A stretch of DNA of 44,407 nt, taken from positions 1 to 44,407 of IMG/VR virus record IMGVR_UViG_3300010279_000003. One strand, 5' to 3'. Of the stretch, positions 3,680-37,900 are shown piece by piece (position 1 is the stretch's first letter; every line of letters starts with the position of its first letter). The translations under genes were made by a program, and so were the position numbers. Under the pieces are notes generated by a model. That model was not told where the DNA came from, searched no databases, and worked only from the letters and a program-made list of their open reading frames with translations. The stretch comes from a virus. Its lineage: Duplodnaviria > Heunggongvirae > Uroviricota > Caudoviricetes.

Positions 3680-5881
3680 TTACTTAGCATAGCGTTTTAA
3701 CTCCGCACCTTCCGCTACAAGAGGGAAACCCTCCGCCCACTCAGGCAGCGAACACATTAATTTTTCCAGTTCAGCCACCGTGTACTCTGGGGCATCTGGA
3801 GTTTCGCACACCAATTCATCGTGTACCGAAAGCACGATGGGGTACCCGCCGCCTTCAACGTTAATCATCGCATACGCAAGTAAATCACGGCACAGCGCCT
3901 GAACAATGTTTTCGCAGGCTTTACCGCCGTGGGTGTACAGGGTAGTCCATTGGCGGGTTAACTGGTTTTCCCCCTGATACTTGATTCGCACATTCGTGTT
4001 TACCCGTCCGTCTTCGTCCGTTTCCTTTGTCACACTAACGCCGATTCCCGGATACGAGAGGATGCGACCTGACGGCAACTCCATGCATAACCACCAACCA
4101 GGAACCTTCCTGCCGGATGAATCAAATTCTACAGTACGCCATATGCGGATAGCCCTTTCCCCATTCCTTCGCAAGTGTGCTCCCGCCCAAAATTCACGAC
4201 CAGGATTACGCACAGCGGCTAAAATTCCGTCTTTAAGGTCACGCCAGAACGCTACTGTTTCAGGGTGTGACTCACGCCACATACGCTTGATTGCGTCGCA
4301 TGTGCGCCACACTTTCTTGTCAAGAATATATGATGGTCGATCGTCCTTTTCCCCTGGATGCGGGGGGCGCTTGGCTTCCTGGATGCGAGCCCATTCATAT
4401 CCTCTCGCGGTGGCTGACCAGATGTGGTCGGGGAATGTACCGTCCATTGTTTTTGCCATCTCAATAAGGTCAAGACCTAAGTTTTTGGCGAACGTAACGA
4501 ACGCTCCTACGCCGCCCTCGTAGCCGAGGCCAAGCTCGCAAGCCTTGCCTATCTGTCTTATTTCCTTGAAGTTTTTCTTAATATCGTCGGGGTCCATGCC
4601 AAACATCTTGCCCGCGGTTACACAGTAAATATCCAGTCCGGCGCGGAACGTATCGAGCGCGGTTTCTTCACCTGCCAGCCACGCAAGCCCGCGGCCTTCA
4701 ACGTTAGAGTAATCGGCGACGACAAACTTACGCCCGGCTTCCGGTATTATGCAGCTACGCACAGTAGATGCCGTTAGTTTGGCTACATCAAAACGGCGAT
4801 GGGCGCGGCCCTTAAGTAACGCCGAAATGCCTTTATCCAGCTCATAATCGTGATAGTAACCGCGTGCCAGGTTCTGCGGCTGGAAGCCTTTACCTGCCCA
4901 TCGCAGAGTACGTTTTGCCCCACCGTACTGCAAGCAACCGCGACGGCGGTCGTCCGAAGAGCGGCCCAGCAGCAGCGGGTTATATTTCGTGGACGCCGTG
5001 GACGCGGCCCCGAGGCGCATTTCGATAATCGTGCGTGCGTCGTCCGGTAAATCATCGTCCGCAAGCAAGTCATTCAGTGTCGACTTCTGCGCGTTGTGAA
5101 TACGGTGCGCAGGCGCAAGTTCACGCAGAATCGGAAGAAAGTCCTTCCCAGTAAGCGAGCAGCCGTGTTTGCGTTGGGCCTCTTCCTGTAACTGCGCTTT
5201 GTGTTTCTCCACGGCTTCAATCGCGGCTTCCGCCAGTGCCACGTCAACCTTAAACCCGCGGTCGTTGATTAACTGGTCCAGTTCCAGTACACGGTCTTCG
5301 AACTCGGAGTTACCCCACCGCGGCAGCTTATGGAAGACTTCACGCATTGCGGTGATGTCACTCACGGCGTATTTGATGAACAGTGCCCACTCGTCCGGGT
5401 GTGTTTCAGCGGTGTAGCGACGGATTTTGTAGTTCTTCGGCGTCGGTTTAGAGAAACGCTGAATCAGCGCCTTGCCTCGTTTGTCTTTCGCGTTGTCTGC
5501 TGACACGCCCAGCACTTCGCACAACGCATCGAGGGAACCCGGCAGCGCGTGACGAAACGCCCAAATCATCGTATCAATGGTGTTGCCTACAGGAATATCA
5601 AAGTCCCAGCAGTGTTTCATGATGAGCCTATCGAACATTGAGCCGTTGTGCCATACCATCTTGATGCGACTGTTCGGCTTAACCAGACGGCGTAGAGCGC
5701 GGTGTAAATCACCCGGCATGTCGCTGCCGTCGGTGCAATCCCATACCTGCACAGGCTCGTCGTCAAAGGCATAGGTACAGATGAGCACTTCGGTTGACGG
5801 GTGTTCGGCGTAAGCGTAGGAGCCGACTTTCTTCAAATCGGCTTCGGAGAATGTTTCAAAGTCCAGGTATAAGTAGCTCAT
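3680..5881 (-). CDS. DNA polymerase, family A, with 3'-5' exonuclease domain
   Basis: Exo motif YLDFETFS; pol motifs DYSNVEGR, RQIGKACELGLGYEGG, VHDELV; start set at ATG 5881 (MSYLYLDFE) with AAGGA RBS rather than the upstream alternative start in the ORF track. Confidence 0.9.
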   Translation of the reverse strand: MSYLYLDFETFSEADLKKVGSYAYAEHPSTEVLICTYAFDDEPVQVWDCTDGSDMPGDLHRALRRLVKPNSRIKMVWHNGSMFDRLIMKHCWDFDIPVGNTIDTMIWAFRHALPGSLDALCEVLGVSADNAKDKRGKALIQRFSKPTPKNYKIRRYTAETHPDEWALFIKYAVSDITAMREVFHKLPRWGNSEFEDRVLELDQLINDRGFKVDVALAEAAIEAVEKHKAQLQEEAQRKHGCSLTGKDFLPILRELAPAHRIHNAQKSTLNDLLADDDLPDDARTIIEMRLGAASTASTKYNPLLLGRSSDDRRRGCLQYGGAKRTLRWAGKGFQPQNLARGYYHDYELDKGISALLKGRAHRRFDVAKLTASTVRSCIIPEAGRKFVVADYSNVEGRGLAWLAGEETALDTFRAGLDIYCVTAGKMFGMDPDDIKKNFKEIRQIGKACELGLGYEGGVGAFVTFAKNLGLDLIEMAKTMDGTFPDHIWSATARGYEWARIQEAKRPPHPGEKDDRPSYILDKKVWRTCDAIKRMWRESHPETVAFWRDLKDGILAAVRNPGREFWAGAHLRRNGERAIRIWRTVEFDSSGRKVPGWWLCMELPSGRILSYPGIGVSVTKETDEDGRVNTNVRIKYQGENQLTRQWTTLYTHGGKACENIVQALCRDLLAYAMINVEGGGYPIVLSVHDELVCETPDAPEYTVAELEKLMCSLPEWAEGFPLVAEGAELKRYAK

Positions 5882-6046
5882 TTCTTTTTCCTTAAATCCA
5901 GTGCCTTCGTTTCGCTTAATCTTATTTTCATACAATCACGACAAATCCACACATGTCTGTACCCGGCGCGGTACTCATCCGCGTACCACGGAAGTGGCTT
6001 CATGTATCGGTATACGTGCTTACAGAAAAACATTATTTTCGACCCT

Positions 6047-8368: not shown

Positions 8369-8890
8369 TTATTCTTCTTCGAAATACTTGTTCTTGATTG
8401 CTGTCAGGCGTTCCAGGTACTCGGCCAGGTCTTCGTCTTTAATCGCGGCAATCTTCATCTTCTTACCGGTGAACTCTTCCAGCAGTTCGTCAGAATCGTC
8501 GCACGCGGCATCGCTTGGGCCTTCGTTAATCGCATCGTCGATAGCCTGAATCTGGTCGCGCAGAGACTGATAATTGACTTCTTCCTTCTCTTCTTCCGGT
8601 TCTGGCGTCTGCTCCTCTACTTTAGCTTTACGCGGCTTGCGTTTCGGCTTCTCTTCTTCCGCCGGTTTAGTGTCAACGAGGTCTTCACCTTCGACTGGGA
8701 GTTCTTTCGCCTTCTCGACTTCTTCAAGTGCTTTAGCCAGTTCTTTTTTAACTGTCTCCACCCCAGTTACCGCGACGTCAACAGTCAATTCACCTACAGA
8801 TTTATTAGTCGGTTGTTTCACACTGTTCGCAGCAATCAGTTCATGTGCAACTACGAAACGTTCCAGTAATACTAAGAATTTCTCTAACAT
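8369..8890 (-). CDS. Hypothetical Glu/Lys-rich protein
   Basis: 173 aa; first gene downstream of class A promoter at 8922..8950. Confidence 0.55.
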   Translation of the reverse strand: MLEKFLVLLERFVVAHELIAANSVKQPTNKSVGELTVDVAVTGVETVKKELAKALEEVEKAKELPVEGEDLVDTKPAEEEKPKRKPRKAKVEEQTPEPEEEKEEVNYQSLRDQIQAIDDAINEGPSDAACDDSDELLEEFTGKKMKIAAIKDEDLAEYLERLTAIKNKYFEEE

Positions 8891-15650: not shown

Positions 15651-16116
15651 TGGCTTACATTTCTGCGCCGCGTTCGAGGGATTCCGCGGAACTGCGTATC
15701 GTGCTACGCCGAATGAGAAGTACCTGACTATTGGGTACGGTCACTATGGGCCGGACGTAACACCAGGTAAGACCATCACCCCTGGCCAAGGCCTCCTGTT
15801 ACTGAATCGCGATATGGCTAAGGCCGTAGCTGCGGTTGATGCAGCAGCACACCATTCGCTGACACAGGCGCAGTTCGACGCCGTGTGTGACCTGGTCTAT
15901 AACGCCGGTGCAGGTGTGATTGCAGCTACTACTGGCACGGGTAAGGCGCTGCGTTCCGGTGATGTTGCGACGCTACGGGCTAAACTGGCGCTGTTTATCA
16001 ACCAGAACGGCAAACCGCTACTCGGCTTGCGCCGCCGTACAGCGGGTCGTCTGGCGCTGTACGACGGTAAACCGTGGCAGGAGGCTGAGGCTATTGGGCG
16101 CGCGGTGAAAGGTTGA
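15622..16116 (+). CDS. Endolysin, lysozyme (GH24-like)
   Basis: FEGFRGTAY and YLTIGYGH motifs; start ATG 15622 inside ORF-track ORF 15577..16116. Confidence 0.85.
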   Translation: MSVSRNISDNGLHFCAAFEGFRGTAYRATPNEKYLTIGYGHYGPDVTPGKTITPGQGLLLLNRDMAKAVAAVDAAAHHSLTQAQFDAVCDLVYNAGAGVIAATTGTGKALRSGDVATLRAKLALFINQNGKPLLGLRRRTAGRLALYDGKPWQEAEAIGRAVKG

Positions 16117-16183
16117 CACCTAAGACTAATCCGACGATACTTAAATCACCTCCTGTTCCATCCCTCTGCTCTCCAGTTTTATC

Positions 16184-16212
16184 CCGGCCCTGACCCAGCC
16201 GGGATTTTTTTT
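16184..16212 (+). terminator. Intrinsic terminator after the lysis genes
   Basis: Stem CCCGGC/GCCGGG followed by T8. Confidence 0.7.
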
Positions 16213-16234
16213 ATCTATTTTCTGCAATGACTAG

Positions 16235-16263
16235 TTGACTACTACCCTAGACCCTATTATATT
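16235..16263 (+). promoter_or_regulatory. Sigma70-like promoter (TTGACT-N17-TATATT)
   Basis: Followed by leader CGACAACGAGAACGGAGTAGAGAAG and ATG at 16297. Confidence 0.55.
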
Positions 16264-16296
16264 TACTCCATCGACAACGAGAACGGAGTAGAGAAG

Positions 16297-16488
16297 ATGA
16301 AAATTACTAAGATTAAGCATACCGATAACTGGGGTGATTTCCTGGAGATAGAGAAGTGCAGGGATGGTTCATTACTTATAACTTGCACCGACGGAGATAG
16401 TGACGAATTATCTAATGTTAATGTGAGCCTCGATGATTTTATGTCTATTGCTGAGCAGGTTATGGCGTTTTATGGAGATGTTAAATGA
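16297..16488 (+). CDS. Hypothetical protein
   Basis: 63-aa ORF with strong RBS. Confidence 0.5.
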   Translation: MKITKIKHTDNWGDFLEIEKCRDGSLLITCTDGDSDELSNVNVSLDDFMSIAEQVMAFYGDVK

Positions 16489-16634
16489 AAATCACAGATA
16501 TCGAAGCATTCAAAGACGCACAATTGATGGCACGCATCGCCGTTAGTAACCTGAGCAAAAGCATCCCAGCGGCCGCGTTCTGGTTCGCTGCGATGCAGAC
16601 ACTGAAAGCAGCTTATGCAGGAGAGAAGAAATGA
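16485..16634 (+). CDS. Small hypothetical protein (~49 aa)
   Basis: ATGA overlap with neighbours. Confidence 0.35.
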   Translation: MKITDIEAFKDAQLMARIAVSNLSKSIPAAAFWFAAMQTLKAAYAGEKK

Positions 16635-16789
16635 GCGAACAAGGTCAAGTAAGCCAACCGTTACGAGTAGGCCGTAAAGTCAGTCACACCCCGTTCCCGA
16701 CACGCGAGGAACTGATGAAACGAAACAGTTTCTCGGGGCCGGACAAGAACAAGTATCTCAATCGCATGTGGGGAGAGCGTAAAGAATGA
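16631..16789 (+). CDS. Small hypothetical protein (~52 aa)
   Basis: ATGA overlap with neighbours. Confidence 0.35.
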   Translation: MSEQGQVSQPLRVGRKVSHTPFPTREELMKRNSFSGPDKNKYLNRMWGERKE

Positions 16790-16974
16790 CTGACCGTGAA
16801 TACGAGAAAGCCTGTGTAGAAGCGGCACTCCGTCCCACCGACAATGGTGAATCGGAGATTGCTTGCCTGGATACTATGATTCAGTACTACGCAAATAAGG
16901 TAGACCGCCTGATGGAGCAACGTCGTGAACTGATTAACCGCTTCAACCTGAACAAAGGTGACACTAATGCCTAA
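16786..16974 (+). CDS. Hypothetical protein
   Basis: 62-aa ORF. Confidence 0.5.
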   Translation: MTDREYEKACVEAALRPTDNGESEIACLDTMIQYYANKVDRLMEQRRELINRFNLNKGDTNA

Positions 16975-22640: not shown

Positions 22641-22698
22641 AACCCCATGAAGGTATGCCTATCTCTGGCATCGACCAATCTTCATGGGGTTTTCTTAT
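22641..22698 (+). terminator. Long hairpin (12-bp stem AACCCCATGAAG/CTTCATGGGGTT) with T-rich tail
   Basis: Inverted repeat read directly; the ORF-track start at 22655 lies inside it. Confidence 0.45.
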
Positions 22699-22708
22699 AG
22701 GGTTTAAT

Positions 22709-23278
22709 ATGGGAATTGTTTTTGGTGTGGGTATTAACGATGTTTCACCAATAAGTTGCGGAGGGGTGCATATAGCGTCCTACGCCGTATGGAAGAACAT
22801 GTTAAAGAGGTGCTACGACAAGAAATGGCAGCAAAGAAACAGAACTTATATAGGTTGCCGCGTGTCGGACGATTGGTTGGTGTTCAGTAATTTCAAGGTC
22901 TGGTTTGATGATTTTTATGTACCTGGGTGGCAGATAGATAAGGATTTACTTAACCCGGGAAATAAGGTTTACGATGCTTCTAACTGTGTTTTCATCCCTA
23001 AATCCCTCAATACTTTCCTAACAGCCCACGACGCTCTTCGAGGCGAACACCCACTCGGCGTACATTTCCATAAACAAAAGAAAAGATTCATCGCTCAAGT
23101 ATCCGTGGATGGCGTATCTGAACAAATAGGCGCTTACGAAACCGCTCAAGAGGCACACGTAGCATGGTTTCATAGAAAAATTGAATTAGCATATGAATAC
23201 AAAGGTCTTTGCGATAGCATAGACCCACGCCTTTTCGAAGGCGTCTTACGTAAGATTAACTCAATGAAAGAGGTTTAG
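22709..23278 (+). CDS. AP2-domain protein, homing-endonuclease-like
   Basis: C-terminal AP2-like segment (GVHFHKQKKRFIAQVSVDGVSEQIGAYETAQEAHVAW); no clear HNH histidines seen in the N-terminal part. Confidence 0.5.
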   Translation: MGIVFGVGINDVSPISCGGVHIASYAVWKNMLKRCYDKKWQQRNRTYIGCRVSDDWLVFSNFKVWFDDFYVPGWQIDKDLLNPGNKVYDASNCVFIPKSLNTFLTAHDALRGEHPLGVHFHKQKKRFIAQVSVDGVSEQIGAYETAQEAHVAWFHRKIELAYEYKGLCDSIDPRLFEGVLRKINSMKEV

Positions 23279-23281
23279 TTT

Positions 23282-23740
23282 ATGGGCTTTTTTAAAGTAA
23301 CTGATGTGCCGTCGCGTCGCGTAGTCCAGTACGCCCGTGTATCCGGTTCTGGTGAGAACGTAACCTACGTTGAAGATGAAAGTGTACTAGGTACACCTGT
23401 AGACGAGATGCCGTATGCGGACAAGACCGGTATCGCACTCTCTGCTGCTGGTATGCTTTATGAGATTCCGTATCTGGCAGATGCTGGTGATGTGTATTTC
23501 TCTGTGCAACCGAAAGACACCGAGCTGGTCGACGGTAGCGCCACCATCACTGTCGAAGTTAAGGCGGGTAAAGCGCCGTATGTACTGACCTGGTACAAAG
23601 ACGGGAAGGAAGTGGTGAACGCCCCGGAAGAGGCTCTGTCTCTGACTGTTAATGCGGCTGGTGAATACTTCGTTAAAGTTACTGATGCCGATGGTGCGGA
23701 GGCCGTAAGCAAAGCGGCGAAGGTCTCTAAACCAGGATGA
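23282..23740 (+). CDS. Ig-like domain protein (possible capsid decoration)
   Basis: YVLTWYKDGKEV...GEYFVKVTDADG pattern typical of Ig-like domains. Confidence 0.5.
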   Translation: MGFFKVTDVPSRRVVQYARVSGSGENVTYVEDESVLGTPVDEMPYADKTGIALSAAGMLYEIPYLADAGDVYFSVQPKDTELVDGSATITVEVKAGKAPYVLTWYKDGKEVVNAPEEALSLTVNAAGEYFVKVTDADGAEAVSKAAKVSKPG

Positions 23741-23744
23741 TAAA

Positions 23745-23773
23745 AGGCCCCATAATGGGGCCTTAGTTTTATT
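23745..23773. terminator. Bidirectional intrinsic terminator
   Basis: Stem AGGCCCC/GGGGCCT, loop ATAAT, T-rich tail. Confidence 0.6.
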
Positions 23774-24290
23774 TAAATCGCGCAGGCATTAACACCATAA
23801 AGGCCGTGTTTGAAAATTGTATTTTGCATCCTCTGGTTTGGTCCTGGAAATCGAAACGAGCAATTTCATTTTTGTATGCCTTAGAAATCTTGTACGCGTC
23901 TGCCAAATAGCGCAGAGTGAACCCTATACTGTCGACAACACCCGGTGTGATGTGCGCCACGCGTCTCCAGTCAGGAAAGTTTCCTTCTACAACATCTACC
24001 GGAAGTGTACATATAAGCGCACGATTATCGTCATAGAAAGATACACTGCCGTTGTCGTGGTTTACCTCTGCGTAGTTAAATTTAGAAGGCTCTCTCCCTT
24101 TGATGTCTATGAGAGTCCCTTTCTCAACGTTGGTCTTCACATTGTCGCAGAACAATCTATGACTGTCCGTAGACACTATCAATCCTTCAGGGTCTATGTA
24201 AAAAGCGTTCAAATAGTAGCGCACATCATTTTTAGCCCTGCATATTTTCGCCCCTACATACGCAGGGAAAGTAATTACTGTAGTAACCAT
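23769..24290 (-). CDS. Truncated beta sliding clamp (DnaN) homologue: domain II plus the C-terminal half of domain III, no domain I
   Basis: Matches to E. coli DnaN as I recall it: DVRYYLN, TDSHRL (vs TDGHRL), FPDWRRV (vs FPDYRRV), IGF..YL.D, C-terminal VLMPARF (vs VVMPMRL); own promoter and AGGAG RBS. Confidence 0.7.
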   Translation of the reverse strand: MVTTVITFPAYVGAKICRAKNDVRYYLNAFYIDPEGLIVSTDSHRLFCDNVKTNVEKGTLIDIKGREPSKFNYAEVNHDNGSVSFYDDNRALICTLPVDVVEGNFPDWRRVAHITPGVVDSIGFTLRYLADAYKISKAYKNEIARFDFQDQTRGCKIQFSNTAFMVLMPARFK

Positions 24291-24317
24291 TTATCATCTC
24301 CTGTTTAAGTTAACTGA

Positions 24318-24346
24318 ATAGTACCCTATTATATTGGTGTGCGCAA
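24318..24346 (-). promoter_or_regulatory. Sigma70-like promoter, class B (TTGCGC-N17-TACTAT) driving the DnaN-like gene
   Basis: Read on minus strand; conserved leader TTAACTTAAACAGGAG follows. Confidence 0.6.
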
Positions 24347-24399
24347 ACTATTTGTTTATATATTCCAGTTATTCCGCTCAATTGTAAATGTTGGAATAA

Positions 24400-24413
24400 A
24401 CTATTCGAATAGT
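24400..24413. promoter_or_regulatory. Perfect 14-bp palindrome ACTATTCGAATAGT (operator-like)
   Basis: Read directly; built from the ACTATTC element found in the promoter family; abuts TTGACT at 24413. Confidence 0.5.
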
Positions 24414-24441
24414 TGACTTTTCACTAAAAATATGATAAGCT
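24413..24441 (+). promoter_or_regulatory. Candidate promoter (TTGACT-N17-TAAGCT)
   Basis: Consensus -35, weak -10; same TAAG-T type -10 as the candidate at 12024..12052. Confidence 0.35.
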
Positions 24442-24447
24442 CCACCT

Positions 24448-24645
24448 GAGCTTGTGAAGTATGAGCAAGCGACCGCGGCGCGGCAGGTAACGGAGCTGGA
24501 CGTAAGTCCTGAGTGTAGTTACGCTGACGCGTTCGGAAGGGCCATACTCTATTGCTTGTGTAAAAAGTAACTGGTTTACTGAGATTACGCCGTTTCTATG
24601 TTTAAATGATAAGGACTAGCGCCCCGCTTTAAGGCGGGGCTTTAC
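24448..24645 (+). ncRNA. Candidate non-coding transcript or leader (~200 nt) between promoter and terminator
   Basis: No ORF of 60 aa or more in the ORF track; only very short ORFs or a 37-codon GTG frame without convincing RBS. Confidence 0.3.
24621..24645 (+). terminator. Intrinsic terminator upstream of the spanin genes
   Basis: Stem GCCCCGC/GCGGGGC, loop TTTAAG, T-rich tail. Confidence 0.55.
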
Positions 24646-24664
24646 TTATCGAGAAAGGGGAAAC

Positions 24665-25051
24665 ATGAATCTTAAAGCAACTGTCGTAGCCGGAGCATGT
24701 TTCGTCGTCCTAGCCTACGCACACGGCATCTATCAATACCGCAGCGGCTGGGGTGAAGGCCGTGCTAATCTCGTTTCGCAGCAACAGCAGAAAGCACAGG
24801 CTGAGCTGACGAAGAAAACACAACGGCAGCAGCAGGATGAATCAAAGGCCGCCGCCGCTGACAACGAAGGCAAGACGAAATCAGAGGTGATTACCCGTGA
24901 AGTCGTTAAGTACATTAAAACGCCTGGCCGCAGCGTGTGCACTTTCGACGATGCTCGCGTCCTGCTCAAGTCCCACGCCGTTGCCAACGCCAATTCCATC
25001 CCCGGATACGACGATGATGCAGCCGCCGTGCAAACTGGCACCGCCAAGTAG
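24665..25051 (+). CDS. i-spanin (Rz-like)
   Basis: N-terminal transmembrane segment, then charged Q/K/E-rich periplasmic region; 128 aa. Confidence 0.7.
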   Translation: MNLKATVVAGACFVVLAYAHGIYQYRSGWGEGRANLVSQQQQKAQAELTKKTQRQQQDESKAAAADNEGKTKSEVITREVVKYIKTPGRSVCTFDDARVLLKSHAVANANSIPGYDDDAAAVQTGTAK

Positions 25052-37153: not shown

Positions 37154-37900
37154 TTACTCGCTGCGTACTTTTCCGTTACATAGCTCCGTGAACTCAGCTA
37201 TTATCTCGCTGTTGGCCACCATCCACTCACTGGCCCCATCAAAGTTGCTTAGCTCCGCCGATACGTGTGTGCGGTGAAAGTATCGCTCTAACATACGGCA
37301 ACGAGCACCATTAGCGTCTTGGTATACACTAAGCACATGGAACTCAAACGGAGTGGAGCGCTCCAGTTGAGCAAGTCGTTGTTTTAACTTGTTAGTAATA
37401 CCTATTTTAAGGTATTTACCACATGCAGAAAGAAGTCCGTAAATGTACCCTGGTTTGTTAGAGTCGTAGCCGTGTCTGGCGCACGACGGACAACCATGCC
37501 TGTGCACTAAAATATTATTAACCCCTGTAGCAAACACCCCGTGGTCATTACATGCGCGTATCGCTTTGGAGTTTTTGTTTAGGTACGCGCCGCCTTCAAA
37601 ACCCACGAACGTATATCGAACATCCGCGGATTTTATTTGCTCAATAACGGCATCTGTATTCTTGCGGTAGGCAGCCGCCGCGGCTTCTCGACTGCATTTC
37701 ATACACCCGTGTCCTCCAGAGATGCTACGGGCTATAGCTGAAAATTCACCGTGGGACGGGCAAATAAGTCTAATCTTGCTAGTCGAGTCAATGTACTCAC
37801 TACCGTCATAACTTGCGGATATTGTGTACTTCCCGCCGTGTTTCTTTAAATCTAACTCGACCATTTTCTTCCGTTCTTCCCAACCAATTTTAACGCTCAT
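37154..37900 (-). CDS. GIY-YIG-related (T5orf172-like) endonuclease-like protein with Cys/His zinc-binding motifs
   Basis: PGYIYGLL...YLKIGIT motif; repeated CPSHGEF and GCPSCARHG motifs. Confidence 0.55.
   Translation of the reverse strand: MSVKIGWEERKKMVELDLKKHGGKYTISASYDGSEYIDSTSKIRLICPSHGEFSAIARSISGGHGCMKCSREAAAAAYRKNTDAVIEQIKSADVRYTFVGFEGGAYLNKNSKAIRACNDHGVFATGVNNILVHRHGCPSCARHGYDSNKPGYIYGLLSACGKYLKIGITNKLKQRLAQLERSTPFEFHVLSVYQDANGARCRMLERYFHRTHVSAELSNFDGASEWMVANSEIIAEFTELCNGKVRSE

Follow-up and report, generated by a model that had tools for sequence, protein, structure and literature searches.

The DNA analysed here, called the window in the following, is the whole stretch of 44,407 nucleotides (nt) of the IMG/VR virus record IMGVR_UViG_3300010279_000003. 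It is the genome of an E. coli phage, a Kagunavirus (Guernseyvirinae), and its positions 23000-25000 are 97.8% identical to Escherichia phage vB_EcoS_fPoEco01. On the minus strand of this region, antisense to the surrounding head and lysis (spanin) genes, lies a gene for a protein of 173 amino acids (aa) which is homologous to parts of the E. coli beta sliding clamp, DnaN; we refer to it as the clamp-like gene. The interpretation that we tentatively prefer is that the protein may act as a soluble copy of the partner-binding pocket of the clamp, directed at host proteins. The features of the locus are the following.

23769..24290, minus strand: coding sequence of the 173-aa truncated beta-clamp homolog, with ATG start, stop codon included
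24298..24302, minus strand: Shine-Dalgarno sequence AGGAG, 7 nt ahead of the ATG, found by reading the sequence
24328..24333, minus strand: perfect -10 hexamer TATAAT, candidate promoter of the gene's own, inside the cassette that is missing from Kagunavirus K1ind3
23744..23764, both strands: G+C-rich hairpin with T-runs on both sides, putative shared terminator of the clamp-like gene and the convergent head-decoration gene
about 23764..24359, no strand: accessory cassette of about 596 bp with the open reading frame (ORF), the Shine-Dalgarno sequence and the -10 hexamer, delimited by pairwise alignment with K1ind3

With a -10 hexamer, a Shine-Dalgarno sequence and a terminator the clamp-like gene would constitute a transcription unit of its own, which we count in favour of the interpretation given above. 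An earlier note on this DNA had credited the gene with its own early-type promoter. The -10 hexamer is indeed perfect, but there is no convincing -35 element at the TATAAT, the upstream sequence is A/T-rich, and a scan for the promoter consensus made no call. In the record of phage fBC-Eco01 a promoter feature is annotated at the clamp-like gene, and early expression of the gene is probable. The site of the hairpin on the plus strand, AAGGCCCCATAATGGGGCCTT, is followed by a T-run, and reading of the minus strand gives the same hairpin followed by TTTTAT; judged by this sequence it could terminate transcription of both convergent genes. The ratio of nonsynonymous to synonymous substitution rates (dN/dS) between the clamp-like gene and its ortholog in phage XY2 is 0.18. 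In the comparison with the ortholog of Cornellvirus W5 the synonymous sites are saturated (proportion of synonymous differences, pS, 0.85), and the proportion of nonsynonymous differences (pN) is 0.235. Both comparisons argue that the gene is expressed as a protein and is under purifying selection.

The earlier note had recognised the protein by five motif matches to DnaN. All five were reproduced by HMMER alignment to the E. coli DnaN structures: DVRYYLN (DnaN 150-156), TDSHRL vs. TDGHRL (172-177), FPDWRRV vs. FPDYRRV (241-247), IGFTLRYL vs. IGFNVSYV (317-324) and VLMPARF vs. VVMPMRL (360-366). Residues 16-116 of the phage protein correspond in this alignment to DnaN 144-252 and residues 117-171 to DnaN 312-365; over all alignments, the DnaN residues covered are 125-252 and 312-366. 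The single sequence compared with all PDB sequences gave an expectation value (E) of 2.8e-4. Its match to PF02767 was partial (residues 16-58) and at 17.1 bits stayed below the cut-off of 27, and the DnaN model TIGR00663 scored 19.5 bits (cut-off 137.65). The profile search suggested in the earlier note was significant: a profile of 136 family members matched E. coli DnaN with E 1e-30, and together with the alignment of the motifs this makes the homology to DnaN real.

The family was collected by phmmer from 1.84 billion representative sequences at E <= 1e-3. It comprises 437 clusters at 50% identity, and among the 150 listed nearly all are 165-215 aa long. The consensus of the family reads AKxDVRYYLNG..VATDGHxL..IDGxFPDxxRVxP..IGFNxxYL..MPxR, and most members end 1-3 residues past MPxR, as does DnaN. 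In the precomputed Pfam annotation the short members carry PF02767 only, the true DnaNs PF00712, PF02767 and PF02768. The window protein also matches phrog_3007 (E 2e-35, residues 13-172 against positions 12-186 of the 190 in the profile). A profile search and a Pfam scan of the longer relatives for domain fusions yielded only full-length clamps; the other long relatives of the family have low-complexity tails. PADLOC-DB, which covers anti-phage defence and counter-defence, gave no match at E <= 1. A minority of the members (P0089, P0116, P0117, P0140, P0097, P0162 and others) has a tail of 12-35 aa after the terminal MPxR. A motif of the form hydrophobic-x-x-[F/W]-hydrophobic recurs in these tails (LPDFM, LPAFM, LPAWV, DLSWL, WPRLF), which could serve as self-binding or clamp-binding peptides; the window protein has no tail.

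AlphaFold2, supplied with the family alignment, predicted a compact monomer with a predicted local distance difference test score (pLDDT) of 97 and a predicted template modelling score (pTM) of 0.92. The order of its elements is beta-alpha-beta-beta-beta (residues 3-50), beta-[no helix]-beta-beta-beta (59-101) and alpha-beta-beta-beta (126-167). The beta-alpha-beta-beta-beta repeats of the DNA-clamp fold are present, and the order of the elements in the model therefore identifies the predicted protein as domain II of DnaN minus the second channel-lining helix, followed by the C-terminal repeat of domain III only. A structure search returned sliding clamps as all of its top matches. Superposition of the model on DnaN, another check that had been suggested, brought 158-160 residues together at 2.4-2.7 Å, with 27% identity to the E. 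coli protein, in agreement with a clamp fold.

What the protein lacks is domain I, the second helix of domain II and the part equivalent to DnaN ~253-311, which includes the dimer-interface residues I272 and L273 (PMC11139829). Both segments that contribute to the head-to-tail dimer interface of DnaN (domain I/domain III) are missing from the alignment. A DnaN has three clamp domains in a chain of about 366 aa, and the phage protein, with its 173 aa, does not have this organisation. When full-length DnaN was compared with the whole window by tblastn, this ORF was the only match (E 5e-4) and nothing like domain I was found. The absence of domain I and of the first half of domain III, with the dimer interface, had thus been correctly read in the earlier note. 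A frameshift or assembly error that masks a full-length clamp was considered and rejected: tblastn detected only this ORF in the window, the length of the protein is conserved in the family, and the boundaries of the cassette are clean. The C-terminal unit of the family profile aligns to both halves of DnaN domain III (253-302 and 313-366), which indicates that the two halves are homologous repeats. Clamp rings reportedly have pseudo-two-fold axes in and between domains (clamp-domain topology, Kong et al. 1992). This topology and the positions of the pocket residues imply that the retained units are those whose sheets meet at the II/III boundary, the site of the partner pocket, and that the deleted unit (DnaN ~253-311) carries the sheet and the I272/L273 of the ring-closing interface.

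The DnaN pocket consists of subsite I (R152, L155, T172, G174, H175, R176, L177, P242, R246, V247, V360, M362) and subsite II (H175, N320, Y323, V344, M362, P363, M364, R365) (PMC11139829). The E. coli DnaN sequence used in this comparison was checked by its length and by the presence of all 18 pocket residues at the stated positions. All 18 map to the retained segments and none to the deleted ones, which bears out the view that exactly those segments were kept which build the pocket for clamp-binding motifs. The phage protein is identical to DnaN at 14 of the 18 pocket positions and at 28 of the 132 others (Fisher p 4e-6). When all family members are considered, the residue of E. coli DnaN occurs with a frequency of 73% in pocket columns (median 86%) vs. 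22% in other columns (median 12%; Mann-Whitney p 3e-9), the pocket columns being the best conserved in the family. Eight columns of the family are near-invariant, corresponding to DnaN R152, Y154, L155, T172, G174, P242, Y323 and M362, and seven of these are pocket residues.

A dimer was modelled with AlphaFold2 as one chain made of copy 1, a 30-residue Gly/Ser linker, copy 2 and a tail with a scrambled and a true consensus motif; this was a single run with a covalent linker and a paired alignment of 28 rows. The pTM was 0.78, though 85 of the 430 residues are disordered linker or tail, and both copies had pLDDT > 90. For two independently placed 173-residue bodies a pTM of about 0.4-0.45 would be expected, so the two copies are predicted as one rigid body. 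Relative to the monomer model, the linked dimer has new symmetric strands at 121-125 (SIGFT) and a lengthened strand at 143-148. SIGFT opens the C-terminal repeat of domain III as its first strand; clamp domains normally have this strand in the sheet of the other repeat, and in the monomer model it is without a partner. The model suggests an association of the two orphan half-domains about a dyad that would restore one complete clamp domain; such a pairing is plausible in view of the homology between the halves of domain III. The prediction is most simply read as a II-III*-II' arc as large as one DnaN protomer, with up to 202 residues of the model superposing on one DnaN chain. The two pockets of such an arc would presumably lie on opposite faces.

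We regard the predicted dimer as a lead. The earlier note had pictured a cleft-only decoy without a ring; the ring-closing interface is absent as it said, but a simple monomer may be too simple a picture in the light of the pTM and the new strands of the linked dimer. We hold it possible, if rather unlikely, that a three-domain arc paired through half-domains, with two host-type pockets and perhaps closing to a 4 x 1.5 ring, represents a new class of phage effectors which capture or bridge host proteins carrying clamp-binding motifs. The isoelectric point (pI) is 8.3 for the window protein, 7.7 as the family median and 5.6 for the equivalent DnaN segment; the net charge of the window protein is only +2. 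Lys/Arg residues conserved specifically in the family are found at positions 20, 134 and 137, on or beside the two retained helices. This near-neutral to basic charge, as computed from the sequences, leaves room for some direct contact with DNA.

Comparison with related phages shows how widely the gene is distributed. In Kagunavirus K1ind3 a clean block of ~596 bp (~23764-24359) is missing, with 14 nt in its place, and no homolog was found anywhere in that genome (tblastn E <= 10; hidden Markov model search E <= 1). The PolA of K1ind3 is 89% identical to that of the window phage. These alignments show that the clamp-like gene is dispensable, an accessory gene. The replication set of the window consists of PolA (3680..5935, minus strand), an AAA_25-domain protein annotated as helicase-primase in K1ind3, an SNF2 helicase, a DUF2800 nuclease and an Enc34-type single-stranded DNA-binding protein, and the clamp-like gene is located far from this module. 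No clamp-binding motif was found at the termini of the phage PolA, helicases and primase; the few internal matches to the motif fall within structural proteins and appear fortuitous. The replication ORFs of the window that were scanned revealed no clamp-loader gene.

Among phage records, 222 contain a homolog of equal size. Dhillonvirus Bas14, a phage with a PolA, likewise carries the clamp-like gene in antisense orientation, between spanin and capsid genes. In Swiduovirus swi2, Klebsiella phage 6991 and Vibrio phage pYD38-A it stands in a small operon after a gene for a ParB-like helix-turn-helix (HTH) protein; swi2 has a primase, a helicase, RecE and RecT, and no annotated DNA polymerase. 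The operon of the Swiduovirus- and Roufvirus-type phages opens with the gene of a 271-aa ParB/KorB-type HTH protein and has the clamp-like gene as its last member, antisense within the head genes. The ParB/KorB-type HTH gene was located at three places:

16090-16899 in swi2 (contig L006): gp77
4636-5451 in contig L002
2241-3056 in contig L003

In lambdoid-type contigs the clamp-like gene is in the nin region, after NinB and RusA. A homolog on a Salmonella plasmid is part of a prophage-like element, between an XRE regulator and xis/int; the other plasmid matches listed are mostly chromid dnaN genes, plus four short-form matches on other plasmids. The gene family spans phages with different replication strategies. 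This spread, together with the lack of a motif at the termini of PolA and the helicases, makes a function tied to one phage polymerase unlikely. A target common to all these hosts fits better, and the obvious candidates are those host proteins for which the conserved pocket is a docking site. In the temperate relatives, the nearby recombination genes hint weakly at control of repair or recombination.

The DnaN pocket binds QLxLF-type motifs of Pol III alpha, the clamp-loader subunit delta, Hda, Pol II/IV/V and MutS/MutL. The reading to which we give most credence, and which we put forward as a tentative one, is that the phage protein, probably a homodimer and not an obligatory part of the replisome, binds the clamp-binding motifs of host proteins and competes for these clients or redirects them. 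The phage would carry a soluble derivative of the beta clamp, one and a half clamp domains in size, which needs no clamp loader. Domain II and the C-terminal half of domain III would together present a complete DnaN-type pocket, to which host clamp-binding motifs would bind. Early in infection the protein would be a competitor of the host clamp for clients, or would redirect these, with likely effects on host replication control, translesion synthesis or mismatch repair. The probable homodimer would be two-fold symmetric, its half-domains rebuilding a full clamp domain in a three-domain arc with two pockets. The homology, the fold, the architecture, the conservation of the pocket residues, the dispensability of the gene and its spread over phages of different replication strategies are shown by the analysis; binding of peptides, the identity of the clients, an effect as decoy, dimerisation and how the pockets are oriented to each other are what we infer.

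Several observations weigh against capture of host clamp clients. Four of the 18 pocket positions are substituted relative to DnaN (G174S, N320T, V344C, M364A). The pocket positions are the most conserved of DnaN in general and anchor the alignment, therefore part of the enrichment is expected for any DnaN homolog. The tethered peptide RQLDLF was left unplaced by AlphaFold2 (pLDDT 31), as was the scrambled control (pLDDT 38); this failed docking lends no support to motif binding and is not a strong negative. It must be noted that the dimer comes from a single linked-chain run with an alignment of 28 rows, in which AlphaFold2 may have completed a learned fold. Lastly, phages that replicate with the Pol III of the host, such as swi2 and the lambdoid phages, would themselves suffer from a plain decoy for Pol III alpha; the clients must then be other proteins, or the protein recruits instead of sequestering. 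Hda, the translesion polymerases, MutS/MutL or the delta subunit, or else recruitment, are the more attractive candidates. MuC of phage Mu contacts the clamp by means of its clamp-binding motifs, and its overexpression upsets Hda-dependent control and kills the cell (PMC12867686); this result attests to the sensitivity of the cell to disturbance of the clamp hub.

Three other functions can be imagined for a protein of this fold, and we rank all of them below capture of host clamp clients. The protein could be a loader-independent DNA tether or processivity factor, whose dimeric three-domain arc would bind DNA by its helix-lined concave face without encircling it, in the manner of herpesvirus UL44 and UL42, and hold a polymerase of the host or the phage through the pocket. 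We consider this unlikely. The clamp fold and the predicted arc-forming dimer agree with it, as do the pI of the protein and its family (8.3 and 7.7 vs. 5.6), the conserved Lys/Arg at 20, 134 and 137 and the name sliding clamp given by the GenBank annotators, but of three expected channel helices one is absent, the net charge amounts to just +2, and the arc itself is a prediction. The gene is also dispensable in K1ind3 in spite of the 89%-identical PolA, and no clamp-binding motif stands at the termini of PolA or the helicases. Much the same observations count against a specific adaptor or processivity subunit for the family A DNA polymerase of the phage, an idea already voiced in the earlier note. 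The window phage does encode a PolA, and so does the Dhillonvirus that has the clamp-like gene, but K1ind3 has nearly the same PolA without the gene, swi2 (no annotated polymerase) and the lambdoid-type contigs have the gene, no clamp-binding motif was found in PolA, and the gene lies outside the replication module; we judge the adaptor improbable. There is also the possibility of a true ring of new stoichiometry, in which four subunits of 1.5 domains would form a six-domain, D2-symmetric ring from two dimers that meet at the free edge of domain II. In its favour, a clamp domain is rebuilt in the predicted dimer, up to 202 residues of which superpose on one DnaN chain, and the pseudo-two-fold axes that clamps are said to have make such a ring geometrically conceivable. 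It would have 8 channel helices and not 12, since the helix of the second half of domain II is missing; the scanned replication ORFs include no clamp-loader gene, and the gene is dispensable. On balance we think a ring quite improbable.

Two further explanations concern what the gene is at all, and neither has much to recommend it. It is very hard to believe that the ORF is a functionless, decaying remnant of a full-length phage clamp or an artefact of assembly or frameshift. Full-length phage clamps of about 330 aa do exist among the distant relatives (P0122, P0156), but the length is conserved in a family of 437 clusters (165-215 aa in nearly all of the 150 listed), the dN/dS is 0.18, the model is compact (pLDDT 97), no coding sequence resembling domain I is present in the window, and the cassette has clean boundaries. 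That the protein is a RusA-like Holliday junction resolvase we consider practically negligible. The match to phrog_3007 is strong (E 2e-35) and its label appears in many records, but PF05866 does not match even at E <= 10, and the fold contradicts the label, the top structural matches being sliding clamps. A separate, real RusA gene is present a few genes upstream in lambdoid contigs (L009 4887-5219), and it may be the source of the label.

Outside the cassette a few features of the neighbourhood and of the rest of the window deserve mention. The intergenic region 24361-24664 (plus strand) is near 100% identical to K1ind3, compared with ~90% for the flanking genes. It contains TTGACT (24413-24418), a 17-nt spacer and TAAGCT with a TG extended -10. 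Downstream of these elements there is a structured stretch of ~190 nt (minimum free energy -71.9 kcal/mol, z -2.07), which ends in a terminator (24621-24640) directly before the spanin start at 24665. An Rfam search with this conserved region gave no match. By its sequence elements the region resembles a late leader of the lambda pR'/tR' type or a small RNA. At 22655-23278 (plus strand), between the head-morphogenesis and head-decoration genes, there is a 207-aa ORF, and features of close relatives under its match include a 'putative HNH endonuclease'. The ORF is present in this phage, fPoEco01, fFiEco02, Schulenburg and K1ind3, and missing in Ivi, Snoke and others; matches of the Ivi/Snoke type, which lack it, begin at query position 266 or 283. 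It looks like a mobile endonuclease insertion. T5orf172/MUG113 (GIY-YIG-like) and CapR domains are present in a 248-aa ORF at 37154-37900 (minus strand), which stands in antisense orientation between the tape-measure and distal tail genes and is probably another insert of the homing-endonuclease type. A second ORF of 173 aa, at 8369-8890 (minus strand) in the replication module, has no Pfam match and no relation to the clamp-like protein (BLASTP E 11).

The homology to DnaN is not new, as it is already contained in the GenBank names of the gene ('DNA polymerase III sliding clamp', 'beta clamp domain-containing protein'), and one genome paper simply calls the protein the beta clamp (PMC9825357). 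The labels in the 222 phage records are inconsistent: 'sliding clamp / DNA polymerase III beta subunit', 'RusA-like Holliday junction resolvase' and 'hypothetical protein' all occur. The phrog_3007 label 'RusA-like' has been carried into Pharokka-annotated genomes, e.g. NC_054649 gp73 and PQ429079. The sliding clamp label overstates the protein, and the RusA-like label is wrong. In the full-text literature that was searched we found no description of the truncated architecture, of the selective retention of the pocket or of an experiment on the protein, and this agrees with the statement of the earlier note that it knew of no described phage protein of this architecture.

The pocket of the beta clamp is the hub that coordinates bacterial polymerases, the clamp loader, Hda and the mismatch repair proteins, and it is an antibiotic target. 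A widespread, natural and soluble copy of the pocket alone, if true, would add a new type of tool to those that phages use against their hosts. It would provide a ready-made reagent for trapping clamp clients in vivo, and would serve as a natural experiment that separates the clamp parts required for binding partners from those required to make the ring.

It is useful to compare the phage protein with known systems. It agrees with E. coli DnaN (PDB 1MMI, 2POL, 6E8E; PF00712+PF02767+PF02768) in the fold of domain II and the C-terminal half of domain III and in its end, MPxR plus 1-2 residues. DnaN has 366 aa and is acidic, whereas the phage protein has 173 aa, is mildly basic and optional, and stays below the cut-offs of the family models. 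The full-length phage clamps (phrog_947 'DNA polymerase processivity factor'; P0122, P0156, 324-337 aa) are homologous (E 1.6e-8) and have the same conserved motifs. They are, however, about twice as long and keep sequence on both sides of the central domain, and the window protein covers only positions 148-245 of the 368 in the profile. In its shortening the phage protein recalls beta*. According to Skaliter, Paz-Elizur and Livneh (J Biol Chem 1996), beta* is a shorter, UV-induced product of E. coli dnaN of ~26 kDa and an alternative clamp; this natural N-terminal shortening is said to start near the beginning of domain II and to keep the pocket. Beta* has the whole of domains II and III, whereas in the phage protein half of domain III and one helix are gone as well.

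Clamp-fold processivity factors that do not form rings are known from herpesviruses (UL44 of human cytomegalovirus, UL42 of herpes simplex virus, PF-8 of Kaposi's sarcoma-associated herpesvirus, BMRF1 of Epstein-Barr virus), and these have two complete domains per subunit. They show no sequence similarity to the phage protein, use another pocket and are essential polymerase subunits, whereas the clamp-like gene is optional. The phage protein does not have the combination of two complete clamp domains per subunit and a basic DNA-binding face that distinguishes UL44 and UL42. If the pairing of half-domains suggested by the linked model is real, it would be a new assembly principle of the clamp fold, besides the 2 x 3 and 3 x 2 rings and the C-clamps of herpesviruses. 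Two phage proteins are known to act at the same host interaction hub. Gp168 of phage Twort binds the channel of the host clamp (PMC8565349, PDB 7EVP), and MuC of phage Mu carries clamp-binding motifs, disturbed binding of clients to the clamp altering the control of replication initiation (PMC12867686). Both of these bind the clamp, whereas the phage protein described here imitates the pocket of the clamp and would bind its clients.

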